Shown in pieces: positions 7,337-41,984 of a stretch of 64,000 nucleotides of DNA; positions within the stretch are counted from its first letter, which is position 1, and each line of letters opens with the position of its first letter. The notes under the pieces are model-generated. The model saw only the letters and a program-made list of their open reading frames with translations. It was not told the origin of the DNA and ran no database searches. The stretch spans positions 132,540 through 196,539 of the forward strand of contig CAZPKG010000005.1 of assembly GCA_964587105.1 (NCBI GenBank). Direction: 5' to 3'. This stretch comes from an uncultured Alphaproteobacteria bacterium. GTDB taxonomy: Bacteria; Electryoneota; RPQS01. A program made the position numbers and the translations under genes.

Positions 7337-9052
7337 GTGCTCTTTCTTATTCTCGCTTCTGCTTCTTTTGCTCAGCCGTTTCCGCCGGACTCGGTTTGGA
7401 CGTTTGCGTTTGACGATGGTGGGGACGAGTATTTTTATGATGCAATAGAAGTTAGTGACGGGTATTTGCTGTGCGGTGAGGCGCGAGAGTGGAATGCGAT
7501 GGCGGGGGAAGCGTTGTTGGTGAAGATTGACCGGGATGGGGAATTGGTTTGGAGCCGGAGGTATGCGGACAATGAGTACTGGAGGTTCAAGCAAATTGAC
7601 TCATCGCAGAACGGTTACTACTTAGCAACTGAAATTACCGCTTCCAGTGGACAACGTAGTCGGATTGCCGTCTATGAGCTTAACTCGCACGGTGACTTGG
7701 GAGCGCAGTTAGAGATTGACGGTGGTGACAGCGCGAATGCAAGCTTAGGCAGCGCATTCTACATGAACTCCAATGAGTGGCGAGTTTCGTATACCTTGTC
7801 AAGCAGCGCGAATGGCAGGCACCTATCTTACAAACGAAGAAGTGGTGCAGGAACAGAAACCAGTTACTTTGATGGGATTCGCATCAACGAAAACAGCGGG
7901 CACTTGTTGATGGGTCCGGACTTTGTGCTTTTTGGAAGCGTGCGGGACTCGGTCAACTCGAACTCAAATGGAGTGCTTCGATCCTCTGGTCAAAACAGCG
8001 AGTTTGGTGGTCCCGAAAATGATGCGATTTTTGGCGCAACCATAGATATTTCGAGTAATCAATTGGTCAGTACAGGTTTCACTGAATTGGATGGAGTAAC
8101 CAGCGACTTGTGGTTGTTTTCTGCCGTCATGTACGACATTGATTCATTGCTTTGGAACAAACATTACGGCGGCCTCGCGTACGAAGACGGCGTAGAAATC
8201 GTTAATGCATCTGACGGCGGATTCATCATTGCAGGGAATTTCTCTTCGGAAGACATTGAGTTTGAGCAATCGGATTATTGGCTGCTTAAAGTTGATGAAA
8301 ATGGGGACAGTGTTTGGTCGGTGGTGAAGGGCGGAGATGAAGCGGATCGGTGTGACGGGATGATTCAGACGGAGAACGGGTTTTTATTGTTTGGCGCATC
8401 GCAATCGTTTGCTGTGCCGGGGTGGGACGGGTGCGCGATGTTTTTGGCTTATGTACCGGATATTGCGGCTCTGCCTGCGAGTTTGAATTTCGGGCCGGTG
8501 GCGGTGGGAGACAGCTCTTCGCACTCGCTGGGGTTGATCAATACCGGATCGAACGTGCTGACGGTGACGGAGATTTCATCGACCGCGAACTATCACGCGA
8601 ATTTCACAGGTCCGGCAACGGTTGAAATTGGCGATACACTGAACGTGCCTGTGGTGTTCACGCCGCAGTCGGTTGGAACTCATGTGGACACACTGCGCAT
8701 TTTGAGTGATGCGGTTTCGGGTGTGAAGAACGTGCGGTGTTTGGGTGCGGGAACGGCGGCGGATGCGGATGACGGAAGTTTGCTGCCGAAAGAGTTTAAG
8801 CTTTATCCTCCCTACCCCAATCCGTTTAATCCTACTACTGTGATTCGGTTTGAATTGCCGAAAGCTCAATTTGTGAAGCTGGAGTTGCTTGACGTGACCG
8901 GAAGATTGGTGCAGAAGATCGTGGATCAGTCTTTTGCGGCGGGAGAGCATCAGATTATGATTGACGGTGCGAGGTTGGCTTCGGGGATTTATTTTGCGGC
9001 CATCAAGGCAGGGGAAAACTATGCGGTGCAAAAACTTCTCTTGGTTAAATAG
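7238..9052 (+). CDS. Secreted beta-propeller/choice-of-anchor-D protein with T9SS C-terminal sorting domain
   Basis: PQQ-like repeats (DGELVWSRRY), a choice-of-anchor-D/ASH-like segment (LNFGPVAVGDSSSHSLGLINTGSNVLTV) and C-terminal YPNPFNPTTVIRFELP...QKLLLVK. The start is uncertain. The ATG at 7238 reads through the duplicated repeat; the alternative GTG at 7337 gives VLFLILASASFAQP. Confidence 0.75.
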   Translation: MFSKLFLMRSNVNKPLGILPPFTPPEDWGGIRIVLFLILASASFAQPFPPDSVWTFAFDDGGDEYFYDAIEVSDGYLLCGEAREWNAMAGEALLVKIDRDGELVWSRRYADNEYWRFKQIDSSQNGYYLATEITASSGQRSRIAVYELNSHGDLGAQLEIDGGDSANASLGSAFYMNSNEWRVSYTLSSSANGRHLSYKRRSGAGTETSYFDGIRINENSGHLLMGPDFVLFGSVRDSVNSNSNGVLRSSGQNSEFGGPENDAIFGATIDISSNQLVSTGFTELDGVTSDLWLFSAVMYDIDSLLWNKHYGGLAYEDGVEIVNASDGGFIIAGNFSSEDIEFEQSDYWLLKVDENGDSVWSVVKGGDEADRCDGMIQTENGFLLFGASQSFAVPGWDGCAMFLAYVPDIAALPASLNFGPVAVGDSSSHSLGLINTGSNVLTVTEISSTANYHANFTGPATVEIGDTLNVPVVFTPQSVGTHVDTLRILSDAVSGVKNVRCLGAGTAADADDGSLLPKEFKLYPPYPNPFNPTTVIRFELPKAQFVKLELLDVTGRLVQKIVDQSFAAGEHQIMIDGARLASGIYFAAIKAGENYAVQKLLLVK

Positions 9053-11674: not shown

Positions 11675-12781
11675 TTGTCGCAACGTCTAATTACAAATTT
11701 AAATCACCTTAAGAGTATTTCGGAGCAGCTGGATACGCTTTTTGGCACTCTTGAATTAGAGGATTTGTCGAAAAAAGTTACTCTCGTTGAGGACTTCGTG
11801 TACTTTCACCTTCCTCACGTGCACATTCTGAATACTCTCGTTTCAAACGGCGCTAAGGCATCGGACGATTTCAGCTTTTTTGGCTTTAACGGCATTACCT
11901 TCGAGCTAAGCTGTCATGAGTCAACAACAGAGCGCAGCATTTTGGAAGTTACCATCTTACCTAAACTGACAAAGAATGAGAAAAAAGCAATAGGTAAACC
12001 GGTACTGACAAGATTGCAACTTCATGACTCATACGGACGATTCGAAGAGGTTCGGATTATTGCGTCACCACTGTTATCTTATGTCGCTAGCCAGTTAGCG
12101 GAATTAGTTTGTGAAGTCATCCGCGAAGCGGAAACCTGGCTTGCAAAGCACTTGCATTTTCTTGCGCGTAGAATGACAACAAAGTTTGCAACGGAGTTTT
12201 ACACAGAGCTAAGACACCTACTAGTAACGAATCTGAAAAGTGATACCATAGCAGATTATGTATTCCTCGTGATGGTTGACAAGAACAGAGGAACATATGC
12301 CTTGGACTCTCATGCAGTTGATGCTTTTCTGGAAAGGTCTTCGAATAGCCAAGAGGACATGAGGATATCCCCGTATGCGGCATTGGCTGAGATATTCTCT
12401 CAAGAGATTCCATTTGATCAAATGCACTCTCGTTTTGCGATCAAAAGCAACAAGTGCATTTTCATTGATCTCGACCTTTCTGACTATTATATGAAAGCTA
12501 ATCAATTGGTGCATGCACAGCACGACTTTATAGGTTCAAAAGATACTTGTGTTTATCCGCTTTGTAGATCAGGTCAAACCTTCTTGCTACTTGCATATCC
12601 GCAGAGTATCTCGTCTCAGCTTAACCCGTTACTTGACCAATATAAGGATGAGCTTACAAAGATATATTTGAGCCATGCAGGATTGGTCAAGAGGATTGCA
12701 AGAAAGACATGGGCAGTAGTTAAGAGTCCGGACTTCGCAAAATGGCTCCGAGCCTTTACGCTCCCCGATGAACCAGCATAA
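11675..12781 (+). CDS. Hypothetical protein encoded in a low-GC insertion
   Basis: 368-aa ORF. It is markedly AT-rich compared with its neighbours. No transmembrane segment and no recognisable motif. Bounded by the 84-bp direct repeats. Confidence 0.6.
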   Translation: MSQRLITNLNHLKSISEQLDTLFGTLELEDLSKKVTLVEDFVYFHLPHVHILNTLVSNGAKASDDFSFFGFNGITFELSCHESTTERSILEVTILPKLTKNEKKAIGKPVLTRLQLHDSYGRFEEVRIIASPLLSYVASQLAELVCEVIREAETWLAKHLHFLARRMTTKFATEFYTELRHLLVTNLKSDTIADYVFLVMVDKNRGTYALDSHAVDAFLERSSNSQEDMRISPYAALAEIFSQEIPFDQMHSRFAIKSNKCIFIDLDLSDYYMKANQLVHAQHDFIGSKDTCVYPLCRSGQTFLLLAYPQSISSQLNPLLDQYKDELTKIYLSHAGLVKRIARKTWAVVKSPDFAKWLRAFTLPDEPA

Positions 12782-12996: not shown

Positions 12997-13083
12997 TTAG
13001 TGGATGACGACTTCGTCATAATTAAGAGATATATTAGTTTGCATTTATTTTGCAGCGCTTCAATCAGCCGAAAGGATTCCATT

Positions 13084-14343
13084 ATGTGTCGGCAGCTTTT
13101 TGCAGCAACTTTGAGCATTATACTCATGACAACAGTTGTTAGCTTTGGTCAGAACGTGGCGCCACTTGGATTTACCATTTTAAGGGATCATTCTTACGAT
13201 GTTGAGGTGAGCGGGTCGAACGCTTTTCTGGCTCACGAAACACGCGGACTGATGATACTTGACGTCAGCAATCCATCGAGTATTGAAGAGTTGGACTCGC
13301 TATTGTTTACCGATACCCCACGAGATGTGGTAATATCAGATACGCTTGCATACGTCACGGCAGATGACGGAATACACGTTGTTGACATATCGGATTTGAG
13401 AGATTTGGTAGAGGTTGGTTTCACCTCCTTAGAAATGGGTTACGGCTGCGAATCTGTGTTATACGGGCCATACTTGATTACAGGCGGATCAGGCCACCTG
13501 TTTGCTCTTGACATCAATGATCCGTTAACACCAGTTGTCGTAGGGACATTAGGGTTTGAAGATATGATAAGCATCGGCGGCATTGCAATTTGGGATCACT
13601 ACGCTGTAATTGCCCTTTCTGCATTCTTCGGCGGCATTGAGATTGTGGATCTTTCAGATCCAACAAATCCGCAATCCGTTGGACACGCTGATACAGATGA
13701 CTGGGCACACAGTGTGACCGTATTTGGCAATCATGCTGCATTGGCCGTTGACTATGCGGGTGTTCAAATCTTTGACATTAGCTTGCCCACGTCTCCGCAA
13801 CTCGAATCCACAATCGTAATGGAAGATGCAATTACAAATAGTATTGCATCGGCCGGGAATTTCGTATATGCGGCCGGACAGGATGAGAGGTTACACATAT
13901 TTAATCTTGACAATCCGTCAAATCCAATTTCCGTTGGAACGAGCCCTTACGATCTTGGGGGAACAGAGATCTTCGTATCCGCATCTGGAGAGATCATGTA
14001 CACAGCTGACGGTGTTAGATTTGAAATCTTTGACTGTTCTGCCGCGCTCCCCGTCGATGACGAGCCTACGCCATATTTGCCTGCTGATATCTCACTACTT
14101 GCATATCCCAATCCCTTCAATCCGACGACGACATTGACATTTTCAGTTGCGCATGAAGCCGAAGTGAGATTAATCGTGTTTGATGTTAACGGGCGATTGG
14201 TGAGCGAAGTGGTGCGCGGAAAGTTTACGGCAGGGACGCATGCAGTGAATTGGTCGTGCTCTGAGTGCACATCAGGGATTTACTTTGCAGCGATGAACGC
14301 CGGATCGTTTACGGCTTCGCAGAAACTACTTTTGTTAAAATAA
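13084..14343 (+). CDS. LVIVD-repeat beta-propeller protein with T9SS C-terminal sorting domain
   Basis: Repeated LxILDVSNP / IHVVDISD / IEIVDLSDPTNP / VQIFDISLPTSP / LHIFNLDNPSNP units (LVIVD repeats). Signal peptide MCRQLFAATLSIILMTTVVSFGQ. C-terminal YPNPFNPTTTLTFSV...QKLLLLK. Confidence 0.7.
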   Translation: MCRQLFAATLSIILMTTVVSFGQNVAPLGFTILRDHSYDVEVSGSNAFLAHETRGLMILDVSNPSSIEELDSLLFTDTPRDVVISDTLAYVTADDGIHVVDISDLRDLVEVGFTSLEMGYGCESVLYGPYLITGGSGHLFALDINDPLTPVVVGTLGFEDMISIGGIAIWDHYAVIALSAFFGGIEIVDLSDPTNPQSVGHADTDDWAHSVTVFGNHAALAVDYAGVQIFDISLPTSPQLESTIVMEDAITNSIASAGNFVYAAGQDERLHIFNLDNPSNPISVGTSPYDLGGTEIFVSASGEIMYTADGVRFEIFDCSAALPVDDEPTPYLPADISLLAYPNPFNPTTTLTFSVAHEAEVRLIVFDVNGRLVSEVVRGKFTAGTHAVNWSCSECTSGIYFAAMNAGSFTASQKLLLLK

Positions 14344-18097: not shown

Positions 18098-19250
18098 ATG
18101 AAACCTGAAGAATTGACACAGCAGATTGCGGAGTATCGACCGAAGTTAGATGTCTTGCGGAGGTCGCTTTGACTACTCCAAACGGCTGTCGGAAATTGAA
18201 CGATTAGAGACGCTGTCAGGCGGAGCGGGTTTTTGGGACGACCAAGAGCAGGCGCAAAAGGTGCTCCGACAGATTTCCGAGCACAAGTCATGGGTGCAGG
18301 CCTATCGCAAAGTGGAAACGGCGTTGGGGGATTTGGATGCACTGCGCGAGTTAGCTCAAGAGTCACCTGACGAATTCGGTTCGGACGATTTGGATAACGA
18401 AGCGAAGAAATTCGCGGAACTGTTTGACGACTTGGAAACGCGCGCGATGTTGAAAGACTCAAACGACACTCGCAGCGCGATTATTCATATACATCCGGGA
18501 GCAGGGGGAACAGAATCATCGGATTGGGCTGAGATGCTGTTCCGCATGTATATGCGATGGACTGAACAGCGCGGATGGAAGACCGACGTGCTCGATTTGG
18601 AACCGGCTGAAGAGGCGGGCATAAAGTCGGCAGTGATTGAAGTTTCGGGCGAGTTTGCCTACGGCTATTGCAAAGCAGAGACGGGTGTGCATCGGTTGGT
18701 GCGCATCTCTCCGTTTGACTCCAACGCGCGTCGGCACACGTCGTTTGCGAGCGTGTTTGTGTATCCTGAAGTCGAAGAAGTGCCCGAAATCGAGGTACGG
18801 CCCGAGGATTTGCGGATAGATACGTTTCGCGCGTCCGGCGCGGGCGGACAACATGTCAATCGAACGGAGTCGGCGATTCGCATCACGCATATTCCGACTA
18901 ACATCGTGGTGACGTGTCAGACGGATCGCTCGCAGCATCGCAACAAGGATTCGGCGATGAAAGTTTTGTATGCGAGGCTGTATCAAAAGTATCTCGACGA
19001 CGAGCGGGCCAAGAACGCCAACATCGAAAATTCCAAGACGGATATCGCGTGGGGGCATCAGATTCGCTCATATGTGTTCCAGCCGTACCAGATGGTGAAA
19101 GATCATCGCACAGGCGTGGAAACGTCGAGTATTCAGAAAGTGATGGATGGGGACTTGGATGAATTCGTACGCGCATTTTTGCTGTTGGGCGCGCAGGGCA
19201 AGTTTGCGCGCTCGCGGCAGCAAGCCTCGAATGATGAAGACGATCTGTAA
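18098..19250 (+). CDS. prfB: Peptide chain release factor 2 (programmed +1 frameshift at 18173)
   Basis: ORF1 MKPEELTQQIAEYRPKLDVLRRSL ends at CTT TGA C, preceded by AGGAGG. This is the classic RF2 frameshift cassette. The +1 frame continues DYSKRLSEIE... and includes GGQ (SGAGGQHVNRTESA). Confidence 0.9.
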
Positions 19251-19272
19251 ACAATAAACAGGGAGAAACCGA

Positions 19273-21327
19273 ATGAAGCGATTTGTAATTCTGATTGTGC
19301 TGTTGCTGGCTGTGTGTGCCTTTGCAAAGCCAAAACCTCTGGGCGCCGACGGCGAACCCTACTATGAGTTCGTGCCGAATCATGTCTTGGTGGCATTTTC
19401 AAAGGCCATCCCGCAAGCAAAGATCGACGAGATCATCACGCGGAGCGGCGGCAAGGTGGGCAGCTATTCAGAGTTATTAGACTTCTATCGGGTCGAGATG
19501 AGCACGTCCGCGCGGGAAGGCGTAGAGTATTTTCGTTCGCAGGACGACGTGCTGTGGGCTAACTACAACTATGTCGCGCACATGCAATTCGTGCCGAATG
19601 ATCAATACTATTCGTATCAATGGCACTATCCGTTGATCGGAATGGAGCAGGCTTGGGATATTACGCGCGGCGATCCGAGCGTTGTAGTGGCGGTGTTGGA
19701 TCAGGGATGGCAGTTTGATCACGAAGATTTCGCGGGAGTTGCGCGCATAAGTCCGCGCGACTTCATCGGCAACGATAATAATCCCGAAGAACCGAATCTT
19801 CAGGATTCACACGGTATGCACACGGCGGGAACAATATTCGCCTCTACAAATAACAGCACAGGAGTTGCGGGCGTCGCGCCGCTTTGCACTTTGATGCCTG
19901 TGCGCGTGTTGGACAATACCGGTTCAGGTTCGATTGAAGCGATCGCGAACGGCTTTGCATGGGCCGCGCAACAGGGCGCCGACGTCGTTAATGCAAGTTT
20001 AGGTTTTAGCAACCCCAACAATAATCCTCCTGTTGATCCGGGCCAGCCGCTGACGGGCGCGGTGCAGCAGTGCGCGGCGGCGAATGTGGTGATGGCGGTT
20101 TCTTCGGGCAATGATAATGCGGACTATGTTTCATATCCGGGGGCGTACACGGCGTGCATCGCGGTCGGCGCAACGGCGATAGATAATGCGATCGCGCCTT
20201 ATTCGAACAGAGGAACCGAACTTGACATTACTGCGCCGGGCGGCAATACCGATCAGGATTTAAATCAAGATGGTTATGTTGACGGTGTGCTCTCGACCGT
20301 GCGCAATGGTGATGGAGACTCCTATGTGTTTTGGCAAGGTACATCAATGGCCGCTCCGCATGTTGCCGGTCTCGCCGCTTTGATCTTAGCGCATGGTTGT
20401 CCTCCGGATCGCGTGCGTGACGCATTGCAAAACACTGCGGTTGATCTCGGCGCTCCGGGTTGGGACGTCGTGTTTGGATATGGCCGCATCAACGCACAGG
20501 CCGCCTTGCAATATAACTGTTCAGGCGGCGGCGGCGGTGAAACGGTGTTGTTTGACGGCCCGATGGAAAACAACTCTGAGGGATGGACGGTTTCCGAACA
20601 AGGACAAAACGGCGTGGGTTGGAGATTTTTGGATTTTGGCGCGCCTGATTGCGGTGCGACTCCTCACGGTGGTCAGAATGGCCTGTGGCACGATGACGAA
20701 CAGGGAGTCGGTTTGTTGGACGATTGGCTGTACACTCCACAAATCACCATTCCGTCGAATGCAGTCTCGGTCGCGCTGACATTTTGGCAGCGCAACTGTT
20801 ACGTCACACCGCAGTATTACGATTTGCACGCACTCTACTACTCGACCGATGGAAACAATTTCACACAGATTGTCGAGCTTGATGATCAAGCTCAGTCTTG
20901 GGAACAGGTTTCGATTGACGCATCCGCGCTGGCGGGAAACAACGTTTATTTTGGTTGGCGCTATCGCGGCGACTACGCAACCGAGTGGTTTTTGGATGAC
21001 GTGCGGGTAACGGCGACGACGAGTTCCGACGCAGCGCCGCGCAGTGACTACGTCATACCGGCGGAATTTACTCTGGGGAATCCGTTCCCGAATCCGTTTA
21101 ACAATGTGGTGCAAATTCCGTTTGAAGTGTCCCAGCCCCGCGAACTTACGCTGTCCGTTTACAACGTTACGGGGCAAAAAGTGGCAACGCTTGTCAACAA
21201 TAAAAAGCTTGCCGCCGGCGCGCATCGCGTGACGTGGCAGGCCGATCAAGTTGCAAGCGGTGTATATCTGGTGCAACTGACAAACGGCTCGCGCACCTTG
21301 ACGCAGAAGATTTTGCTGGTGAAATAA
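19273..21327 (+). CDS. S8-family subtilisin-like serine peptidase with T9SS C-terminal sorting domain
   Basis: Catalytic Asp/His/Ser motifs (VAVLDQG, HGMHTAGTI, GTSMAAPHVAG). C-terminal NPFPNPFNNVVQIPFEV...QKILLVK. Confidence 0.85.
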   Translation: MKRFVILIVLLLAVCAFAKPKPLGADGEPYYEFVPNHVLVAFSKAIPQAKIDEIITRSGGKVGSYSELLDFYRVEMSTSAREGVEYFRSQDDVLWANYNYVAHMQFVPNDQYYSYQWHYPLIGMEQAWDITRGDPSVVVAVLDQGWQFDHEDFAGVARISPRDFIGNDNNPEEPNLQDSHGMHTAGTIFASTNNSTGVAGVAPLCTLMPVRVLDNTGSGSIEAIANGFAWAAQQGADVVNASLGFSNPNNNPPVDPGQPLTGAVQQCAAANVVMAVSSGNDNADYVSYPGAYTACIAVGATAIDNAIAPYSNRGTELDITAPGGNTDQDLNQDGYVDGVLSTVRNGDGDSYVFWQGTSMAAPHVAGLAALILAHGCPPDRVRDALQNTAVDLGAPGWDVVFGYGRINAQAALQYNCSGGGGGETVLFDGPMENNSEGWTVSEQGQNGVGWRFLDFGAPDCGATPHGGQNGLWHDDEQGVGLLDDWLYTPQITIPSNAVSVALTFWQRNCYVTPQYYDLHALYYSTDGNNFTQIVELDDQAQSWEQVSIDASALAGNNVYFGWRYRGDYATEWFLDDVRVTATTSSDAAPRSDYVIPAEFTLGNPFPNPFNNVVQIPFEVSQPRELTLSVYNVTGQKVATLVNNKKLAAGAHRVTWQADQVASGVYLVQLTNGSRTLTQKILLVK

Positions 21328-21333
21328 CCCGCC

Positions 21334-22494
21334 TTGACTCCGCATACGCTCTCATTGCCGAACGTGATGTCGGCCGATGAAGTTCAACCTCATCGGCCGA
21401 CTTTTGCGCGCATCTATCGAGATGCGATTGCGGGGAATTTCAAACGGTTTCGCGAGCTTGCTCCGCAATCGCAATTGATGGCCGTGGTGAAAGCAGATGC
21501 TTATGGACACGGCCTGCTGCATTGCGCAAAACTGTTCAGCGAGTTAGGCACGGACAGTTTCGGAGTTGGTTTTGTCGAAGAGGGGATCGTCCTCAGACGA
21601 GCCGGGATTCGCGAGCCGATTCTTGTACTGGGCGGAATTGTCGGCTCGCAGATTGAATTGTTTCTCGAATACGATTTGGATTTGACGGCAAGCTCGCTAT
21701 TTAAACTTGAAGCGATTGAACGCGCGGCACAGGCAGCAGGTAAAGTCGCGAGGGTGCAACTCAAGATTGACACGGGAATGAACCGGATCGGGCAGAATTT
21801 TCGCACGGCGGAGAGTCTGCTCCGCGCGGCAAAAAATTCCAAGCATGTGCTGGTAACAGGAATCTATTCGCATTTGGCGACGGCGGAAGAGGTCGATCAG
21901 AGCTTCGCCCGCTTGCAGATATCACGGTTTGCAGAGATTCGCGAACTTGCCGACAGCATTGGATTCAGAGATGTAGTTTATCATCTTGCCAACTCTGCCG
22001 GAGCGATTCGCTTTGCCGATGCGCGGCTTGATTTGATTCGGCCGGGACTTGGCCTCTATGGCCAACACGCCGCAAGCGCATTGCAATCGGAATTCCCGCT
22101 CCTCCCTGCTCATCAGTTGGTGAGCGAAATTGTGTATGTGAAGGGTGTACGCAAGGGTGAGGGAGTCAGCTATAATTTGCGCTGGACGGCTCCGGAGAAT
22201 GTTTGGGTTGCGACCATTCCAGTGGGATACGGCGACGGATATCCGCGTTTGCTCTCGAACAAAGCAAATGTGTTGATTGGCGGAAAGAGATATCCTATTG
22301 TCGGAACGGTGTGCATGGATCAATTCATGGTGAATCTGGGACATGACAAACGCGCCGTCGGCGACGAAGTTGTGTTGTGGGGGAAACAGGGTGAAGACGA
22401 GATTTCGCTTTGGGAGTTGTGCGAGGCGGCAGGGTTTATTCCCTATGAACTGCCAATTTATTTGACGGGAAGAGTGCCGAGGCTGTTTGTATGA
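21334..22494 (+). CDS. alr: Alanine racemase
   Basis: PLP-lysine motif AVVKADAYGHG. C-terminal half has Alr signatures (..YGDGYPR.., ..GTVCMDQ..). The start may instead be at 21367. Confidence 0.85.
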   Translation: MTPHTLSLPNVMSADEVQPHRPTFARIYRDAIAGNFKRFRELAPQSQLMAVVKADAYGHGLLHCAKLFSELGTDSFGVGFVEEGIVLRRAGIREPILVLGGIVGSQIELFLEYDLDLTASSLFKLEAIERAAQAAGKVARVQLKIDTGMNRIGQNFRTAESLLRAAKNSKHVLVTGIYSHLATAEEVDQSFARLQISRFAEIRELADSIGFRDVVYHLANSAGAIRFADARLDLIRPGLGLYGQHAASALQSEFPLLPAHQLVSEIVYVKGVRKGEGVSYNLRWTAPENVWVATIPVGYGDGYPRLLSNKANVLIGGKRYPIVGTVCMDQFMVNLGHDKRAVGDEVVLWGKQGEDEISLWELCEAAGFIPYELPIYLTGRVPRLFV

Positions 22495-23915
22495 AGGAAA
22501 CAAAAGGCAAAAGTTACTTGGGGGACTTTTGGTTTCCAAGCAAGCCAGAACGCAAAGTACGTGGAAAGCTTATTATAGACGATTCCAATAAGTCTTCGCT
22601 TCAAACTGATGGTGCGCTTGAGGGTAACACATCAGATGATATCAATTCCTTTCCTCGAAGTCCAAAGCCAGACCTTGTAATTTGGGGTGAATTGGATGCG
22701 GGGGGAGTGGTCACCCTTTTTGACGTAATCCATTCCAGTGGGCATACATCTCCTTTTCGATGGGAAAGATACCAAGCAACTTACAACTCGCCTTTATGCG
22801 TCATGGGCGGACACTTCTCCCTCAAATCCGATTTGAAAGTAAGGGTGTTAAAACTATACTTCACAAATTTACGCGAATGGATTTGTTTCAGCCCTTTTGA
22901 TTATTCAATTCACAAGAAAGGTGAAGATATTGTTAAGATAAAGCATTGGCACGAGGAACAGTTTCGTATTTCTACGTCAATAGATTTTTGTATACAGTGT
23001 GGAATATCTCAAACGGCTGGGCCACTTGAGTTTCGGGCAGAAATCTTAGCTTGGGTTGCGTTAGTGTCAACTGACTCGCTAACACTCGATGAATGGTCAC
23101 CACACGTAAATTCATTCCAAAGGTTATTAATTTTTGCCTCCTCAAAACGTTCTATCGTTGAAAAGCTGCATGCATTCCCAATCACGCAAAATGAAGACGA
23201 ATTGAACATATTCATGCAAGTATCATTGCGCAATGTTGAAAAGCTTACGTCGAGGGAATTTCTATTTAGCTGGGATGACATCCTGTCAGATCGTAGGGGA
23301 GAGTTTCTGTCTAAGTGGTTCACACTTAATACTGATTTTGAGCAAGTGGTAAGTCTTTATATATCGAGCATAATTTGGAAGGATTCAAGCCAGTATCATG
23401 TTTTTCAGGTGTTAGTTCAGGCAATTGAGGCTTTTCACCGCGGCAAGTTTGATAGGCCACGCGTACCCAAAGGAGAGTTTAGAGTTTTGTGTGATGAAGT
23501 ACGCAAAACCATCAGTCAAGTAAAGGATGATGAGTGGAAAAGTAGATTTGCAACCGCAGTTTCAAACACTAACACACTTTCTTTGAGGGAGCGGATTGAA
23601 GAATTGCTTAATAAATATTCAATCGGAGCATCTGCTCTAATTGATAATAATGATAAGTTTGCAATGTTAATTTCAAAAACTCGAAATTTCCTTGCGCATA
23701 GAGGTGATGATCAAGATTTTGTGATCCATGAACGTGATATTTTTTGGTTCAATGAAGCAATGCGACACTTGCTTCAAATTGCTATCTTAGTTGAACTTGG
23801 TTATGTTGAAACGGATGCTGTTTCAATGATTCGTGAACATTCATTGAATCACAATCTGAAAAAATCACTCCGGTTGACTTCAGAAAAATACTTTCCCGAT
23901 GATCCGCCTTGCTAA
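22491..23915 (+). CDS. ApeA-like HEPN-domain protein (putative abortive-infection/defence nuclease), low-GC island
   Basis: 474 aa. N-terminus GDFWFPSKPERKVRGKLIID resembles ApeA N-terminal domains. C-terminal Rx4H HEPN motif (TRNFLAH). About 43% GC against about 58% in the flanks. Overlaps both neighbours. Confidence 0.5.
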   Translation: MKETKGKSYLGDFWFPSKPERKVRGKLIIDDSNKSSLQTDGALEGNTSDDINSFPRSPKPDLVIWGELDAGGVVTLFDVIHSSGHTSPFRWERYQATYNSPLCVMGGHFSLKSDLKVRVLKLYFTNLREWICFSPFDYSIHKKGEDIVKIKHWHEEQFRISTSIDFCIQCGISQTAGPLEFRAEILAWVALVSTDSLTLDEWSPHVNSFQRLLIFASSKRSIVEKLHAFPITQNEDELNIFMQVSLRNVEKLTSREFLFSWDDILSDRRGEFLSKWFTLNTDFEQVVSLYISSIIWKDSSQYHVFQVLVQAIEAFHRGKFDRPRVPKGEFRVLCDEVRKTISQVKDDEWKSRFATAVSNTNTLSLRERIEELLNKYSIGASALIDNNDKFAMLISKTRNFLAHRGDDQDFVIHERDIFWFNEAMRHLLQIAILVELGYVETDAVSMIREHSLNHNLKKSLRLTSEKYFPDDPPC

Positions 23916-24453
23916 TCCTTCCGACGCCGCGCAGATTTTGGATATTTACGCGCCGATCATTCGACACACGGCAATAACGTTTGAGTATGAGATTCCGGAG
24001 GTCGAGGAGTTTGAAGAGCGAATCCGGAAGACCTCTGAGTTCTATCCGTATTTGGTGTGGGAAGAGCACCGCGAGATTTTAGGCTATACGTATGCCACGC
24101 GGTTTCGTTCTCGTAAGGCCTATGACTGGATTTGCGAATCGGCGATATACATCTCTGAAAGCGCGCGCGGCAAAGGCCTTGGTCAAAAGCTCTATTTGAA
24201 ACTGTTTGACTGTCTGCGCGCGCAAGGTTTGGTTTCGGTTGTCGCTGTGGTAAGGCCGCATGCTCAAACAGTGGATTTTCATGAGGCTTTGGGATTTCAG
24301 AAAGTTGGAGTTATTCCCTTCGGTGGATATAAGCACAACGAATGGCACGATGCAGGCTTCTGGCAGCTTGTGCTGTTTGACCCGGCGCCGACGTCGCCCG
24401 CTCCGGTGAAGCCATTTCCCAGTATTTCTCATTTGATCTCGCTCGATGCCTAA
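23899..24453 (+). CDS. GNAT-family N-acetyltransferase (phosphinothricin acetyltransferase-like)
   Basis: GNAT motif A region ..ARGKGLGQKLY.. Global similarity to the PAT/YncA class. Confidence 0.8.
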   Translation: MIRLANPSDAAQILDIYAPIIRHTAITFEYEIPEVEEFEERIRKTSEFYPYLVWEEHREILGYTYATRFRSRKAYDWICESAIYISESARGKGLGQKLYLKLFDCLRAQGLVSVVAVVRPHAQTVDFHEALGFQKVGVIPFGGYKHNEWHDAGFWQLVLFDPAPTSPAPVKPFPSISHLISLDA

Positions 24454-25222
24454 AACGGCTTTGATCACGGGCGCATCGAGCGGAATCGGGCTTGAATTGG
24501 CGAAGCTGTTCGCGCGGGATAAGATCAATTTGGTGCTGGTTGCCCGGAGTGCGGAGCGACTTGATGAAATTGCGCGCGATTTGTCGGCGCAGTTCGGGGT
24601 TGCGACCGTTGTCATGATCGCCGATCTTTCCCAACCCAATTCCGCCGTGGAATTATTTCGCGAAACTCAAGTACGCGGTCTGACGATTGACTATCTCGTG
24701 AACAACGCGGGGTTTGGAATTCTTGATAGATTTCTGAATACGGACCTGAGTCGCGAACTCGAGATGATTCAATTACACGTGGCGACGACAACGACGCTGA
24801 CGAAGCTTTATGCCACCGAGATGACCGCGCATGGAGAGGGCAAAATTCTGAATGTGGCCTCGACAGCGGCCTTTCAGCCGGGACCGTGGATGGCTGTTTA
24901 CTACGCGACCAAAGCCTATATGCTGAGTTACAGCGAAGCGGCTAACGAGGCCCTGCGTAGTTCGGGTGTGACCGTGACATGCCTCTGTCCGGGACCGACA
25001 CCGACGAATTTTCAGGTCAGGGCGAAGAATCGCAAGAAGGGAATTTTGCGACATGTCAAGACGTCCGCTGAATATGTTGCTCTGAGTGGTTACAGGGCTA
25101 TGCACGCCGGGAAGCCACTTGTGATCCCCGGTGTTCTGAATCAAATCGGGGTGTTTGCCGTTCGTATTCTGCCGCGCAGAGTGGTCACCTATCTTTCGCG
25201 CAAGGCCTCAGAAAAATCGTAA
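24446..25222 (+). CDS. SDR-family oxidoreductase
   Basis: TGASSGIG glycine motif, NNAG, and the catalytic YxxxK (YYATKAY). Confidence 0.85.
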   Translation: MPKTALITGASSGIGLELAKLFARDKINLVLVARSAERLDEIARDLSAQFGVATVVMIADLSQPNSAVELFRETQVRGLTIDYLVNNAGFGILDRFLNTDLSRELEMIQLHVATTTTLTKLYATEMTAHGEGKILNVASTAAFQPGPWMAVYYATKAYMLSYSEAANEALRSSGVTVTCLCPGPTPTNFQVRAKNRKKGILRHVKTSAEYVALSGYRAMHAGKPLVIPGVLNQIGVFAVRILPRRVVTYLSRKASEKS

Positions 25223-25331
25223 ACCGGGTCTTAAACCTGCCACAAGTTTCGCATTTCCTCTCTCGTATTCTCTGGATCGGTGTGGTGTCGCCGTCCGAAA
25301 TCCTATATCTCCTATCCGTTCCGGAGGACCC

Positions 25332-27584
25332 ATGCCCCTGTTGACTGCCGTTTTGATTTTGATTTTGAGCCAGGTTGCGTGGGCGGACATGTCCGGCTAC
25401 GAAGTTGTGGCCAAGAAACTGACCGTGCCGATTGTGCTGGATGGTCGGATTGAAAAGACTTGGCTGGAAGGCGGCAAGGCCGACAACTTCATCCAACGCG
25501 AACCGGGCTACCCCGCTCCTGTGACTCAGAAGTCTGAAGTCTATGTTTATTACGACGAGAATGCGCTTTATTTTGCGTACATGCTCTATGACACGGCGCC
25601 CGACAGCATCGCGGGCCAGATTCAGCGGCGTGACAACGACTCCAACTCGGACTTCGTTGATCTCTACTTGGACACTTTTCATGATCACCGCACAGGCTAT
25701 TGGTTCACGGTTACTGCGGCGGGTGTGCAGGCGGAGGGAACGTTCTTCAGCGAGAATAATCTCTCAAACTCGTGGGATGCTGTCTGGGAATCTGCTGTTG
25801 CGATAACCGACAGCGGCTGGAGCGTTGAGTTGCGAATTCCGTTTCAGATTATGCGGCACGGCGGCCCGCGCGAAGATGGTTGGGGCGTCGCGTTCGCACG
25901 CAAGATATATCGCATTAACGAAGCAGGGTTCTGGCCGCCGGTTGATCCAGAGATTGGCTGGAAAGCATCGAAAATTGCTACGCTAAGCGGCTTGGACGAC
26001 ATCGCGTCCTCGGCACATCTTGAAGTGCTTCCACACGTTGTAGGCCGTTGGGATGCACCGGTCGAGCGCACTGAGGCATATGAACTGGCACAGGAGTTTC
26101 GCTCGGAGAACGAATGGGAGAACTTGGGTCTAACCTTGAAGTATGTTCCGTCGGCGGCTCTGAGTATTGACGCGGCTTATCAGCCGGACTTCGCGCAGGT
26201 TGACGTGGACGAAGCGGTTATCAATCTTACCGATTATCCAGTTTTTCTATCTGAGAAGCGTCCGTTCTTTCTTGAATCCAAAGAGTACTTTGAAGAGACG
26301 CCTTATACGTTTGTCTATACACGCCGAGTGGCCGATCCTGATTACGGCGGACGTGTAAACTATCAACAAGGGAACATTAAAGCGAGTTTTCTGGCGGGCA
26401 AGAATCGTTTGTCGTATTTCGACGAGCAATTTGAAACACGCGGACTCTTGCAAGATGCGTTTGTCGGACGTACGACATTAAATTCCGGCAGACATCGTTT
26501 CGGTTTGACAGGAACGTACCTTAACCAAACCGGATACTCGGCGGCAGCAGCAGGGTTTGACGCAAAATTCCGCTGGCGCGTGCGCGATCAACTCAATCTC
26601 TGGTTTGCCGGAGTAGATCGCAGCGGAACTCCGGTGCAGCATTGGTATCGCGTCACAGAAGTGAGCGATGAACAACCTGTTGAAGCTCGCGTCGGCTACA
26701 TTCGAGATTATGGCCCGTTCCGTTCAGAGCTTGCCGCAGCGTTTCGCGGAACGGACTATGACATTAACGATTTGGGGTGGGGTGATCCGTCAAATCAACT
26801 CCGACAAGCGCTGTGGATTGGGGACAACTACTATCTCAAAGGCACCGCGTTCCGTAATGTCGGATTTGACATCAACAGCCTCCGCACAACGTTGACGACG
26901 GGCGATGCGGCTGAAGGTTATGCGAATTTCAATCTCTTCACAACCACGCGCACGAATTGGGATCTTGGCGGCGGCATGGAGTGGGGTGATGATTTTCGCA
27001 GACGAAATGTAGGTCCGGATGGCGGCGAATTTCGCGACAACTTCGGTTCGTTTAATCATGAGTACTACAAATACTTTTGGCATTGGGCGTGGCTTTGGAG
27101 CGATCAAACGAAGCCCTTCCGTTATGGTTCTGACTTCCGCTATCGCACATTCCGCGACGGCAACGCTTTCGGATTTGAGCCTGAAATTTCTTGGCGTCCG
27201 CGCTCAAACATCGAACTTGGCGCCGAAGTGGATTGGACACGCGTGTGGGATTCGAAGACTTTTGTCGACACGAGCGGCGTACCAGAAGTCGCCGATTTTC
27301 GCAATTGGATCCTCAAAGCCAATTGGTCACCCAGCTTGAAACTCTCTTTCCGCGCAACCGTGCAATGGGTTGAAAAGGAGTGGGAAGATTACGGCACCCC
27401 ACGTCCCTACAGCGGTCGCAATCGACTCTATGGCAACTATCTGTTAGCATACAATTGGAGCCCGGGAAGTTGGTGCTATCTCGTGTACGACGAGACTTTC
27501 CGCGACGTTGAGACACGCGACAACAACGCCCCGAGTGAGCGCACTTTGCGCGCAAAACTAACTTACTTCTTCACGGTGCCGTAG
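25332..27584 (+). CDS. CBM9-like/DUF5916 outer-membrane-associated protein
   Basis: Signal peptide MPLLTAVLILILSQVAWA. N-terminal LDGRIEKTWLEGGKADNFIQREP...VYVYYDENALYFAYMLYD is typical of the carbohydrate-binding family 9-like domain that precedes DUF5916. Confidence 0.6.
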   Translation: MPLLTAVLILILSQVAWADMSGYEVVAKKLTVPIVLDGRIEKTWLEGGKADNFIQREPGYPAPVTQKSEVYVYYDENALYFAYMLYDTAPDSIAGQIQRRDNDSNSDFVDLYLDTFHDHRTGYWFTVTAAGVQAEGTFFSENNLSNSWDAVWESAVAITDSGWSVELRIPFQIMRHGGPREDGWGVAFARKIYRINEAGFWPPVDPEIGWKASKIATLSGLDDIASSAHLEVLPHVVGRWDAPVERTEAYELAQEFRSENEWENLGLTLKYVPSAALSIDAAYQPDFAQVDVDEAVINLTDYPVFLSEKRPFFLESKEYFEETPYTFVYTRRVADPDYGGRVNYQQGNIKASFLAGKNRLSYFDEQFETRGLLQDAFVGRTTLNSGRHRFGLTGTYLNQTGYSAAAAGFDAKFRWRVRDQLNLWFAGVDRSGTPVQHWYRVTEVSDEQPVEARVGYIRDYGPFRSELAAAFRGTDYDINDLGWGDPSNQLRQALWIGDNYYLKGTAFRNVGFDINSLRTTLTTGDAAEGYANFNLFTTTRTNWDLGGGMEWGDDFRRRNVGPDGGEFRDNFGSFNHEYYKYFWHWAWLWSDQTKPFRYGSDFRYRTFRDGNAFGFEPEISWRPRSNIELGAEVDWTRVWDSKTFVDTSGVPEVADFRNWILKANWSPSLKLSFRATVQWVEKEWEDYGTPRPYSGRNRLYGNYLLAYNWSPGSWCYLVYDETFRDVETRDNNAPSERTLRAKLTYFFTVP

Positions 27585-27617
27585 TCGGCGCCTTTGGTTC
27601 CGCAATCAAATTAGAAC

Positions 27618-29126
27618 ATGTCCGAACAAAACGATTCACAAGAACTTTCCGAACTTCTAAGACTACGCCGCGAAAAACTCGATACGCTGCGCAGTCACGG
27701 TGTCAATCCTTATCCCTATTCGTTTGAGAAGACGATTCACATTCCCGAACTGCTGGACAAGTTTGAGAGTGTGCAGGAGTCTGAAGATCATACGGGTCCT
27801 GAATTCGCGATTGCAGGCCGCATTGTATCCGTGAGAATCATGGGCAAGGCGGCTTTTTGTCATATGCGCGACGAATTCGGGCAGATGCAGGTGTATGTTC
27901 AGCGCGACAAGATCGGCGAAGAGGCCTTTGCGCTGTTTAAGCTTTACGATATCTCCGATTGGATCGGCGCTCGCGGAACAGTGTTCCTAACCAAGACAGG
28001 CGAGAAGTCGCTTCGAGCGAGCGAAGTGGTTATGCTCTCCAAGAGCGTCAAACCGCTTCCGGTCGTGAAGCAACAAGGCGATGAAGTGTTCGACGCATTC
28101 TCAGATAAAGAGTCCCGCTATCGCCAACGCTACATTGATTTGGCCGTGAATCCTGAGAATCGCGAAATCTTCAGAGCGCGCGCGAAGATTATTTCGGCGG
28201 TACGAGAGTTTCTGGATGCGCGCGGCTATCTTGAAGTTGAAACGCCGGCTCTTCAGCCGCTCTATGGTGGTGCGCTCGCGAGACCCTTCAGCACTCATTA
28301 CAACGCGCTCGACCGCACGTTTTACATGCGGATTGCTGACGAGTTGTATCTGAAGCGGCTACTCGTGGGCGGGTTTGAAAAAGTTTACGAGATTTGCAAG
28401 GACTTCCGCAACGAAGGTATGGACAGATTCCACAATCCAGAATTCACCATGCTCGAGTTCTACCAAGCCTTTGCGGATTTTGAAATGATTATGAACCTCT
28501 CTGAAGAGATGTTCCGGCACGTGGCGCTGCGCGCACTCGGAACAACGGAGGTGACCTATCAAGGCAAGTCGGTGGATTTCGCAAAGCCGTTTCGACGTGC
28601 GCGTTTTTTTGATTTGTTGAAAGAGGCGACCGGCAAGGATTTGTTGGGGATTCCGCTAAGTGAACTGGGTGAGATTGCAAAATCATTTGAAGTTGAAATC
28701 ACGCGCGAAATGGGCGAAGGCAAGATTTTGGATGAGATGATGAAGACGCTCGTGCGTCCCAAGCTTGTGGAGCCGACCTTTATCTACGATTATCCGCTTT
28801 CGCTCTCGCCGCTCGCAAAGAAGCATCGCACCGACCCAAGATTGGTCGAGCGCTTTCAACCGTTTGCCTTGGGCTTTGAATTGGGCAATGCCTTCTCCGA
28901 GTTGAACGATCCAATCGATCAGCGCGAACGCTTTGAAGCCCAGCGCAAGCTAAAAGAAGCGGGCGACGAAGAGACTCAGCCGATTGACGAGGATTTCCTG
29001 AACGCTCTCGAATACGGTATGCCCCCCACAGGCGGCATGGGCATTGGCATTGATCGTCTAACGATGTTGATGACTGATCAGGATTCGATCAGAGAAGTTA
29101 TTTTGTTTCCGCATTTGAGAAGTTAG
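27618..29126 (+). CDS. lysS: Lysine--tRNA ligase (class II)
   Basis: OB-fold N-terminus. Class II motifs (..FRNEG.., ..GGMGIGIDRL..). Confidence 0.9.
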   Translation: MSEQNDSQELSELLRLRREKLDTLRSHGVNPYPYSFEKTIHIPELLDKFESVQESEDHTGPEFAIAGRIVSVRIMGKAAFCHMRDEFGQMQVYVQRDKIGEEAFALFKLYDISDWIGARGTVFLTKTGEKSLRASEVVMLSKSVKPLPVVKQQGDEVFDAFSDKESRYRQRYIDLAVNPENREIFRARAKIISAVREFLDARGYLEVETPALQPLYGGALARPFSTHYNALDRTFYMRIADELYLKRLLVGGFEKVYEICKDFRNEGMDRFHNPEFTMLEFYQAFADFEMIMNLSEEMFRHVALRALGTTEVTYQGKSVDFAKPFRRARFFDLLKEATGKDLLGIPLSELGEIAKSFEVEITREMGEGKILDEMMKTLVRPKLVEPTFIYDYPLSLSPLAKKHRTDPRLVERFQPFALGFELGNAFSELNDPIDQRERFEAQRKLKEAGDEETQPIDEDFLNALEYGMPPTGGMGIGIDRLTMLMTDQDSIREVILFPHLRS

Positions 29127-40603: not shown

Positions 40604-41983
40604 TTGGGAGGGCCGTTCATGTCACTTGCCGTAAATTTCGGCTTTGCTTATTCCAAGAAGCTTGCCGGCCACGGAATTTCCAATGAGATGCTGAAGCCCG
40701 CGCTCGAACGCACGGCTAAGGCTTTGGATCATATTCGCACCGAACGAGGAGCCAACAAACTCCCCTATTTGGACTTGCCTGAAGATGGCAAGACCAAGGC
40801 CGCCTGCAAAGAGCTTGCGGATAGATTCGCAGGTTATGAGAATTTCCTGCTTTCAGGCATCGGTGGCAGTTCGCTTGGGCCATTGGCGATTTTCAATGCG
40901 CTCGGTCACCCGCTGCACAATATGCTCTCCGGAGCCAAGCGCAAGAATCATCCACGATTTTTCGCGCTCGACAATGTCGATCCCGTGCAAGCGGACGCGC
41001 TGTTCAATTTCTGCAAGCCGGAAAAAACGGTTTACAATATCATCTCCAAGAGCGGCGCAACGGCTGAAACGGCTGCGGCGTCGCTGATCATTTTTGATCT
41101 GCTGAAGAAGCGGATGGGCAATGATTGGAAGAAGAATATCGTCTGCACGACGGATCCGACGAGCGGCGATTTGCGCAAGCTCTGCAACGATGAAAAATTT
41201 CAGACGCTGCCGCTGCATCCGGGAGTCGGCGGACGCTTTTCGGTTCTGACTCCGGTGGGCCTATTCCCATCCTATTGCTTGGGCTTTGACGTGGATGCGA
41301 TGCTTGCCGGTGCGGCGGAAATGCGCGAGCGTTGTTTGGATAGCGACGTACAAAAAAATCCCGCCGCGCAGATGGCCGCCTTGCTCTATCTGTTCGACAG
41401 CACGCAGCACAAGAAGATGCACGTGATGATGGCCTACGCGAATGGACTTTACGGCATGGCCGATTGGTTCAGGCAGTTGTGGGCCGAATCGCTTGGTAAA
41501 GAGGCCGATAACGAAGGCCGTATCGTGAACGTCGGCCCGACTCCGCTGAAAGCTCTCGGCGCGACCGACCAGCATTCGCAAGTTCAACTCTACATCGAAG
41601 GCCCCTACGACAAGGTGTTCCTGTTCCTCGAATGCAAGAAATTCGGTAAGCGCATGAAACTCCCCGAACTTTATGACAACGTTTCTTCGTTGAACTATCT
41701 TGGCGGGCAAACGATGAACAAACTCATCGCCGCCGAATTTGCCGCGACGCGCGAAGCTCTCGCTCAGCGCGGACGTCCTTCGATTTCCATCACTTTCCCC
41801 GAAGTTGACGCACATGCCGTCGGTGAATTTTTCATGCTATGGGAAATCACGACATCCATCGCAGGCGCGCTCTACCGCATCAACCCCTACGACCAGCCCG
41901 GCGTCGAATTAGGCAAGCAGTTGACCTACGGCTTGATGGGCAGAGCGGGTTTTGAAGACAAGGCCAAAGGGATTAAGGTGTAA
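40604..41983 (+). CDS. pgi: Glucose-6-phosphate isomerase (short bacterial/archaeal PGI type)
   Basis: Two SIS domains: GIGGSSLGP, GGRFSVLTPVG. Confidence 0.85.
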   Translation: MGGPFMSLAVNFGFAYSKKLAGHGISNEMLKPALERTAKALDHIRTERGANKLPYLDLPEDGKTKAACKELADRFAGYENFLLSGIGGSSLGPLAIFNALGHPLHNMLSGAKRKNHPRFFALDNVDPVQADALFNFCKPEKTVYNIISKSGATAETAAASLIIFDLLKKRMGNDWKKNIVCTTDPTSGDLRKLCNDEKFQTLPLHPGVGGRFSVLTPVGLFPSYCLGFDVDAMLAGAAEMRERCLDSDVQKNPAAQMAALLYLFDSTQHKKMHVMMAYANGLYGMADWFRQLWAESLGKEADNEGRIVNVGPTPLKALGATDQHSQVQLYIEGPYDKVFLFLECKKFGKRMKLPELYDNVSSLNYLGGQTMNKLIAAEFAATREALAQRGRPSISITFPEVDAHAVGEFFMLWEITTSIAGALYRINPYDQPGVELGKQLTYGLMGRAGFEDKAKGIKV

Positions 41984-41984
41984 T

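Follow-up and report, generated by a model that had tools for sequence, protein, structure and literature searches.

The window analysed here is a 64,000-nucleotide (nt) stretch of contig CAZPKG010000005.1 from an uncultured bacterium (GenBank assembly GCA_964587105.1). Its subject is a single open reading frame (ORF) of 474 amino acids (aa), lying between alr, which encodes alanine racemase, and a gene for a GNAT acetyltransferase. An earlier note, made from the letters alone, had described this ORF as an ApeA-like HEPN gene that overlaps alr by 4 nt and the GNAT gene by 17 nt, and the ORF and both overlaps are present exactly as described. The ATG of the ORF (22491-22493) and the TGA of alr (22492-22494) together spell ATGA, while at the other end the GNAT gene begins with the ATG at 23899, ahead of the TAA of the ORF at 23913-23915. 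That GNAT start is sound, since profiles align to the protein from residue 2. The features at the locus, all on the forward strand, are as follows.

21334-22494 (+): alr (alanine racemase), the upstream host gene (TIGR00492, 7.8e-102)
22491-22494 (+): left copy of ATGA, where the start of the inserted ORF lies over the alr stop; in relatives, the alr/GNAT overlap (ATGA or GTGA)
22491-23915 (+): inserted ORF, 474 aa, ATG start, with ApeA_NTD1 and HEPN_Apea domains (PADLOC candidate PDC-S58); the sole gene of the insertion
22495-23898 (+): foreign DNA between the ATGA copies, 1404 nt, entirely coding (1408 bp with one ATGA)
22512-23318 (+): ApeA_NTD1 domain, beta-rich, presumed sensory or regulatory (aa 8-276; Pfam, profile positions 1-271 of 271)
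23412-23804 (+): HEPN_Apea domain, all alpha-helical (aa 308-438; Pfam, with helices across aa 266-467 in the model)
23682-23699 (+): HEPN catalytic motif R398-N-F-L-A-H403 (Rx4H plus a conserved Asn; alignment and model)
23899-23902 (+): right copy of ATGA, the GNAT start, where host sequence resumes in register with the empty site of relative L001
23899-23915 (+): host-derived 3' end of the inserted ORF, ...DDPPC plus TAA, read in another frame of the GNAT 5' region
23899-24453 (+): GNAT acetyltransferase (ArsN1b / phosphinothricin-acetyltransferase type), the downstream host gene (8.4e-53)

Our results reveal that the ATGA overlap coupling alr to the GNAT gene in this lineage received 1408 bp of foreign DNA, which amount to essentially one ORF. 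The evidence comes from eight related genomes (L001-L008), fetched with alr as the query at 66-92% identity; all are metagenome-assembled genomes, and one is labelled Calditrichaeota. The order prfB, S8 peptidase, alr, GNAT, SDR, DUF5916 protein and lysS is kept in the closer relatives. In six of the genomes (L001, L002, L003, L004, L006 and L008; alr identities of 67-92%), the GNAT gene starts in the last alr codon through an ATGA or GTGA overlap, with nothing in between. The earlier note had called for a comparison of the alr-GNAT junction, and had named conserved synteny of the gene among distant relatives as evidence against acquisition; the gene proved to be missing from this junction in all eight genomes. 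The more distant L005 and L007 carry other, native-looking genes 3' of alr in place of a directly coupled GNAT gene. These occupy 7130-8486 in L007 and 7373-9782 in L005 and consist of homologous ORFs of 260 and 273 aa, along with a 147-aa ORF in L007 and a 460-aa ORF in L005; tblastn of L005 found no GNAT, SDR or DUF5916 genes. The region 3' of alr is variable at family-level distance.

The boundaries can be placed to the base. The empty site of L001 reads ...TTGTTTGT / ATGA / TCCGCC..., and the window reads ...CTGTTTGT / ATGA / AGGAAAC...TTTCCCG / ATGA / TCCGCC... at the same junction, such that the window equals the empty site plus exactly 1408 bp, with an ATGA direct repeat on both sides. 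The megablast alignment with L001 ends precisely at 22494, and when 22495-23902 is deleted in silico, the restored site aligns gaplessly with L001 over 400 nt at 85.8% identity. For the 1404 nt enclosed by the repeats, blastn gave no match in the eight relatives and only a self-match within the window. A scan of metagenomes for an uninserted junction with window-type flanks found none. At its 3' end, alr does not differ from the relatives, and this holds for a GAGG that precedes the ATGA by 8 nt. We regard the insertion itself as near certain, and it postdates the split from the closest available relative, whose alr is 92% identical. In L001, the S8 peptidase (3939-4064/4063-5991) and SDR (7705-8440) are matched by tblastn in two to three pieces in different frames, which suggests frameshifts, possibly long-read assembly errors given the "tig" contig names, and not real pseudogenes.

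The insert contains no noncoding DNA, the ORF running from the left ATGA through the right ATGA and into host sequence. It has taken over the former start position of the GNAT gene and terminates at a TAA inside the host's GNAT sequence; because it runs past the right ATGA, its last residues (DDPPC) and its stop codon are read from the GNAT 5' region. The TAA spans the GNAT codons GCT-AAT. At the same place L001 has GCC-AAA, which gives no stop, and L004 has GCT-AAG, which does. Since the empty site of L004 contains this TAA, the stop may have been there already, as a synonymous variant, before the insertion and need not have arisen later. No promoter, terminator, spacer, repeat or mobility gene arrived with the ORF.

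Base composition also sets the ORF apart. Its G+C content (GC) of 0.399 and its GC at third codon positions (GC3) of 0.362 are both the minimum among the 49 long ORFs of the window, which average 0.515 +/- 0.037 and 0.566 +/- 0.068 (z = -3.15 and -3.0, respectively). In a sliding window, GC falls from about 0.53 to 0.38-0.41, and the drop coincides exactly with the ORF. The earlier note's figure of about 43% GC thus needs correcting downward. A native GC would have counted against a foreign origin; the lowest values among 49 ORFs were found instead. The empty-site comparison shows the horizontal acquisition that the note had proposed, and with it a base-precise insertion into an operon, which the note had offered as one option beside later compaction.

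The ORF encodes an intact protein of the Pfam Apea / PDC-S58 type, with two domains and a confidently predicted fold, in which all of the invariant HEPN residues are kept. The earlier note had pointed to the peptide GDFWFPSKPERKVRGKLIID (aa 11-30) as resembling ApeA N-terminal domains, and to TRNFLAH (aa 397-403) as an Rx4H signature in its R-N-xxx-H form. The first of these lies in a match to the full ApeA_NTD1 profile (PF18862; 3.4e-29, 102.6 bits, with a gathering score of 25.5), which is followed by a match to HEPN_Apea (PF18739; 1.1e-18, 68.4 bits, with a gathering score of 24.4). Both exceed their cut-offs, and the PADLOC search that the note had also proposed assigned the protein to the defence candidate PDC-S58: profile PDLC05048 matched at 3.3e-46 (aa 9-454 on positions 6-447 of 461), and a second profile, PDLC05046, at 4.9e-40. 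A search of NCBIfam with the protein gave no match. Across 27 sequences (the window protein and 26 relatives), E313, H316, N361, R368, R398, N399 and H403 are invariant, and because R398, N399 and H403 are among them the R-N-x3-H motif is intact. All 27 match PDC-S58. The assignment to this family is near certain.

The family is large. An exhaustive HMMER search of 1.84 billion representatives recovered about 2,900 clusters at 50% identity (2,878 at E<=0.001, 726 of them at E<=1e-10), and the 150 best matches listed were all about 450-480 aa long and aligned end to end. The closest match other than the protein itself was only about 26% identical (8e-26), which makes the window protein a deep outlier among its many relatives. 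Word-indexed searches for homologues, run with the protein and with the family alignment, returned the protein plus one relative only, and tblastn gave three weak plasmid matches annotated "HEPN domain-containing protein" and no phage match. The gene is a new and very divergent member (<=26% identity) of a candidate family that had already been catalogued.

An AlphaFold2 model built on the family alignment (predicted local distance difference test, pLDDT, 83.6; predicted template modelling score, 0.82) contains strands through aa 7-242 and an all-alpha C-terminal domain across aa 266-467. The catalytic motif lies at the end of the helix 387-403, and the final residues are disordered (block pLDDT 53). 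The modelled N-terminal domain fits the definition given in the survey of HEPN proteins that coined the name ApeA-NTD1, namely a domain of about 300 aa with "mostly beta strands" (Anantharaman et al. 2013, PMC3710099). A sequence search of the PDB with the family profile found nothing relevant, and a Foldseek comparison of the model with the PDB and BFVD found no match at E<=0.001. Among the weak, partial Foldseek matches in the PDB and the viral library, those with a high "prob" value were repeatedly to Hcp, the tube protein of the type VI secretion system, and to phage tail tube and tail terminator proteins. Examples are 9vne_E (TM score 0.66 over 102 columns, E 0.25), 9khy_A and A0A8S5TPU3, and a myovirus tail tube protein was among them at E 0.064. 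Foldseek does not report the query residues of these matches, and their placement in the beta-rich domain is our guess; we treat them as no more than a lead.

To place the family in its genomic setting, the context of nine other members was inspected. One (P0025) has an N6/N4 methyltransferase-helicase pair on one side and HD and SIR2 genes on the other, another (P0024) adjoins an integrase, a PDDEXK protein and an HATPase, and a third (P0007) belongs to an integrase-flanked island beside groEL. Two adjoin toxin genes, BrnT in the case of P0172 and PemK in the case of P0019. Three stand alone in housekeeping surroundings: P0002, flanked by a carA-like gene and by a long gene beginning at the P0002 stop codon; P0008, with an 87-nt upstream spacer; and P0027, after a Memo/AMMECR1 gene with a 22-nt upstream gap. 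The contig of the ninth (P0005) is 1.5 kb long, and its context is uninformative. In six of six other loci with DNA, the GC of the family gene is below that of its flanks. The family, there called ApeA/BMEI1217, is also embedded in restriction-modification operons in some bacteria (Anantharaman et al. 2013, PMC3710099). The island contexts and the lower GC than the flanks therefore support a horizontally mobile, defence-associated family. Spacer-free insertion into operons was weighed as a rule of the family and discarded, because tight packing is seen in only some of the nine members sampled; the complete lack of spacer at the window locus is an extreme and not the rule.

How would a gene that brought no regulatory DNA be expressed? 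Because the insert leaves no space for its own promoter or ribosome-binding region, the gene must share host transcription. From prfB to lysS (18150-29126), all genes lie on the forward strand with gaps of -17 to +33 nt; five host genes and the insert lie between the two, and a terminator-like hairpin (27575-27592) stands just before lysS. In Escherichia coli, prfB and lysS form an operon. Promoter-like sites occur at chance frequency (13, with 10.3 +/- 3.7 expected), and terminators are fewer than expected. The inserted gene would be transcribed by read-through from this co-directional array and translated by coupling to alr, from the start position that the GNAT gene used to occupy. For its part, the GNAT gene has lost its direct coupling to alr and now begins inside the end of the inserted ORF; with a start 14 nt upstream of the stop codon of that ORF, it is probably translated by re-initiation.

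By analogy with other HEPN proteins, the product should dimerise through its HEPN domain, creating a composite, metal-independent RNase site. The N-terminal domain would keep the protein inactive until a cue of infection is sensed, at which point the activated protein would cleave RNA (tRNA, mRNA or phage RNA) and halt the phage by growth arrest or by direct restriction. RNase activity of the 474-aa protein is likely, and a defence role, to which genomic context points, is somewhat more probable than not. To the overall picture, in which an inserted foreign gene is expressed by its host and encodes an infection-gated HEPN RNase, we assign a probability of roughly 0.7.

Several considerations weigh against this interpretation. 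Co-transcription and translational coupling are suggested by nothing other than the absence of spacer DNA. The GAGG 8 nt before the ATG, which we had entertained as a captured Shine-Dalgarno sequence, was downgraded and counts as weak evidence: such motifs are rare in this genome (8 of 37 starts, with a background of 12.6%), and the GAGG belongs to conserved alr coding sequence. The sensing step is drawn purely by analogy, because there is neither a solved structure nor a significant fold match for the N-terminal domain. With a single sequence, there is no view of selection on the inserted gene through the ratio of nonsynonymous to synonymous substitutions. Housekeeping genes, not a defence island, surround the window gene, and we found no experimental test of the ApeA_NTD1/PDC-S58 family in the literature; a single paper mentions PDC-S58, and only as a PADLOC candidate. 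Finally, the 4-bp repeat at the junctions is short and cannot identify an enzyme.

A first alternative concerns how the insertion came about. Apart from short repeats at chance level, we found no terminal inverted repeats or longer direct repeats at the insertion, and there are no tRNA genes in the window. An integron cassette, an insertion sequence element and an integrative element were each rejected, there being no attC site, inverted repeat, integrase or tRNA. About 0.4% of random pairs of breakpoints would show a 4-bp repeat by chance (4^-4), and the ATGA repeat points to one event at one target, by microhomology-mediated joining or a staggered cut. The insertion may thus have occurred in one step, as an illegitimate or staggered-cut event that left a 4-bp duplication or microhomology. 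Alternatively, a larger insertion may have been trimmed afterward under selection for a working operon, and the data do not separate the two options. It is tentatively conceivable, at odds of about one in three, that the first arrival was a larger mobile island bringing its own regulatory DNA, and that deletions favoured for restoring operon expression then reduced it to the bare ORF. Relatives do have their own spacers, which measure 87-620 nt upstream of P0008 and P0172, and P0007 has kilobase flanks; the flanks of the window gene have diverged from L001 by 15% at the nucleotide level, which leaves time for secondary deletions; and the native stop codon is missing, with a TAA in host sequence used in its stead. 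Yet the left boundary coincides with the family's usual N-terminus and the right boundary lies a few codons from its usual C-terminus, the same 4-bp ATGA stands at both junctions as one event at one target predicts, and the GC of the insert has not been ameliorated.

A second alternative accepts the acquisition and questions the role. The gene could encode an HEPN RNase without any part in phage defence, whether as a selfish passenger, as a nuclease of RNA processing or stress, or as a recent arrival that is decaying. We found no experimental evidence for defence in the family, and the window copy has no defence-island context. Moreover, some relatives lie beside toxin-antitoxin genes, and a toxin-like passenger might be kept simply because its excision would disrupt the alr-GNAT-SDR operon. 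With the GNAT gene now lacking its former coupling, loss of the insert or a polar mutation in it could harm the downstream genes. However, the insert is entirely one ORF with no antitoxin-sized partner, that ORF is undamaged, its product having all invariant residues and a confident fold, and the family recurs in islands with restriction-modification, SIR2 and integrase genes and is a PADLOC defence candidate. We consider a role outside of defence unlikely.

A bolder version of our own interpretation is that PDC-S58 genes move as bare, promoterless ORF cassettes into the ATGA coupling overlaps of housekeeping operons and that their N-terminal domain is a sensor related to tail tube proteins. 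Taken jointly, these two proposals strike us as improbable. They would call for an unrecognised trans-acting mechanism that leaves a 4-bp duplication, or for very efficient capture through microhomology. If such a view were true, the host operon would supply both transcription and ribosomes, the gene would be hard to delete cleanly, and P0002 and P0027, which are lone, co-directional and tightly packed, would be further instances.

The name of the gene raises another question, which is whether the window protein is a true orthologue of the experimentally studied ApeA proteins. The ApeA anti-phage system, with Ec1ApeA, was reportedly described by Gao et al. in 2020. Ec1ApeA, about 600 aa long and predominantly alpha-helical, is built of N-terminal, Mid and split HEPN domains; ApeA forms decameric or dodecameric rings and cleaves tRNA anticodon loops; and Ec2ApeA is activated by 5'-phosphorylated deoxydinucleotides that bind in a pocket between the N-terminal and HEPN domains (bioRxiv 10.64898/2026.01.26.701840). 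Ec1ApeA, whose motif is RNKITH, also cuts the genomes of RNA phages without killing the cell (bioRxiv 10.64898/2026.03.20.713152), and HEPN Rx4-6H RNases, including Ec1ApeA and Ec2ApeA, need the Arg of the motif for defence (bioRxiv 10.64898/2026.01.26.701840, 10.64898/2026.03.20.713152). Were the window protein an orthologue, it would form a doughnut-shaped decamer and cleave tRNA or phage RNA under the control of a dinucleotide or an RNA structure. The shared name, the single-gene HEPN organisation and the likeness of RNFLAH to RNKITH speak for this, as does one homologue of Ec1ApeA that carries the name "Apea-like HEPN domain-containing protein."

The direct comparisons speak otherwise. We recovered the full Ec1ApeA gene (601 aa) from E. 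coli CFSAN061763 (L080, 3001-4806) by means of its first 399 nt, which are given in Table S5 of bioRxiv 10.64898/2026.03.20.713152. Ec1ApeA scores 1389 bits on the PADLOC ApeA model PDLC02157; that model is matched neither by the window protein (E<=1) nor by any of the 27 family members (E<=0.001). In the other direction, 0 of 15 proteins of the Ec1ApeA family (Ec1ApeA and 14 homologues) match Pfam ApeA_NTD1 or HEPN_Apea at E<=1. Alignment of the two families with hhalign gives a probability of 0.24%, the sole aligned stretch being the HEPN helix with a conserved Glu that both families possess, which is itself a point in favour of orthology. The family profile misses the Ec1-Ec4ApeA chains at E<=1, although these are present in the PDB sequence file. 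No ApeA entry was among the best 50 Foldseek matches listed from the PDB, a library in which the presence of ApeA is unconfirmed. By every test run, the window protein is not a member of the validated ApeA family, and orthology is very improbable. With its different length and N-terminal fold, it has no demonstrable counterpart of the Ec2ApeA ligand pocket. Thus, when the earlier note called the gene ApeA-like, it was right in that the protein belongs to the Pfam family defined by ApeA_NTD1 and HEPN_Apea, whereas its step from ApeA as a single-gene HEPN abortive-infection system to a defence role for this gene is unsupported, since the knowledge about ApeA concerns Ec1ApeA, a different family. 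Because the validated ApeA is another family, the defence role of the window gene has to be argued from genomic context.

The nomenclature elsewhere reflects the same overlap. The RefSeq name "HEPN family anti-phage protein ApeA" denotes Ec1ApeA, which lacks Pfam ApeA_NTD1 and HEPN_Apea, and the carriers of those domains are PDC-S58 proteins; nevertheless, it is a homologue of Ec1ApeA (UniRef entry P0155) that bears the Apea-like name mentioned above. The main text of one preprint names "Brucella pseudomallei" as the source of a "minimal homolog" that is distant and 467 aa long and states that Bp1ApeA was untransformable, and the legend of its Fig. S1C differs from the text in giving Bm1ApeA as the protein without BLAST similarity (bioRxiv 10.64898/2026.03.20.713152). 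When the Bm1ApeA insert sequence of Table S5 is translated by eye, its initial ~130 residues do not, in our reading, resemble how ApeA_NTD1 proteins begin.

Two further readings would remove the insertion altogether. The gene might be ancestral at this junction and have been lost from the relatives, since deletion between the two copies of ATGA would regenerate the coupled junction exactly. We find this scarcely credible, because the gene is absent from the six coupled relatives (alr 67-92%) and also from L005 and L007, and several independent, base-perfect deletions would be needed; furthermore, the reading leaves unexplained a foreign composition in which GC and GC3 are 3 standard deviations below the genome's genes, and no relative exceeds 26% identity among the 1.84 billion representatives searched. 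An assembly or binning chimera, which might be suspected in a metagenome-assembled contig whose composition changes abruptly at the boundaries of an ORF, can be dismissed for practical purposes: two different sequencing runs, SRR14271333 and SRR35571890, each yielded a Logan contig that spans both junctions, matches the window at 100% identity (over 5645 and 1938 nt) and holds the identical protein in the same context, so that three assemblies agree, and the reading frames run on unbroken and overlap functionally at either end.

The locus has implications on three levels. Having empty sites, it offers a base-resolved case of a candidate defence gene that entered a core operon without regulatory DNA of its own, by way of a start-stop overlap. 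In addition, the ApeA name covers two unrelated families and is a trap for annotation: the mechanism described for ApeA in 2026, with its decameric ring, deoxydinucleotide pocket and tRNA cleavage, is not simply transferable to PDC-S58 proteins. Lastly, experiments could reasonably be aimed at a large HEPN family whose beta-rich N-terminal domain is unexplained. Current understanding is not overturned by any of these points; the gene is an ordinary, though very divergent, member of a catalogued candidate family.

Elsewhere in the window, a canonical programmed +1 frameshift site of release factor 2 (RF2) lies upstream of the prfB ORF of 18150-19250, at 18099-18172 on the forward strand. A short ORF from the ATG at 18099 ends in CTT TGA C (18166-18172), with GGAGG ahead of it, and the main frame of prfB carries on from that point; it is because of this frameshift that the listed prfB ORF starts at 18150. 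A second strongly low-GC ORF (GC 0.429, z -2.3), at 41952-43187 on the forward strand, encodes an AAA_15/AAA_21 ATPase. Its best PADLOC match is NsnB (3e-40, near full length), with further matches to AriA, HEC-01A, Old and GajA-type models, and the ORF downstream of it (43199-43657; 152 aa, GC 0.473) has no PADLOC match. This region is possibly another acquired defence islet. Two other forward-strand ORFs of low GC are those at 11675-12781 (0.425), which has no Pfam or PADLOC match, and 13000-14343 (0.462), which encodes an LVIVD-repeat protein with a Por_Secre_tail sorting domain of the type IX secretion system.

Among known systems, the closest likeness of the inserted gene is to the PDC-S58, or ApeA/BMEI1217, family itself. 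The profile match is full length, 474 aa falls within reach of the usual 450-480, the beta-rich N-terminal domain and the RNxxxH motif are kept, and the gene is a single-gene unit in a family of patchy, low-GC occurrence. The window copy differs in being <=26% identical to any of the roughly 2,900 representative clusters and in sitting spacer-free among the genes of a housekeeping operon and ending at a stop codon that lies in host DNA, whereas the sampled relatives mostly have their own intergenic regions or islands. With Ec1ApeA and Ec2ApeA (PDB 9hxn, 9hxi), it shares a single-gene organisation, a C-terminal HEPN domain with R-N-x3-H and a non-catalytic N-terminal region presumed to sense infection, and by analogy it may likewise be an infection-activated RNase. 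In contrast to Ec1ApeA, it has 474 and not ~600 aa and a beta-rich region where Ec1ApeA has alpha-helical N-terminal and Mid domains, and similarity of sequence or profile is undetectable in either direction. Minimal HEPN toxins must dimerise to form an active site, and the HEPN-MNT (HepT/MntA) toxins resemble the window protein in their Rx4-6H RNase fold with a site formed in this way. Unlike them, the window gene has no MNT or antitoxin gene beside it, both neighbours being conserved host genes; with no antitoxin neighbour and an N-terminal domain of ~300 aa fused instead, its control is presumably intramolecular. Finally, the locus resembles small defence islets and single-gene insertions among conserved core genes, in that one lineage has a candidate defence gene of foreign, low-GC character at a junction where relatives lack it. 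It departs from these by lying inside a translational-coupling overlap, with zero noncoding DNA and only a 4-bp direct repeat, and by the absence of an integrase, tRNA, attC site or inverted repeats. What is distinctive about the locus is this seamless insertion into a translational-coupling overlap, documented by empty sites, together with the clarification of the ApeA name.

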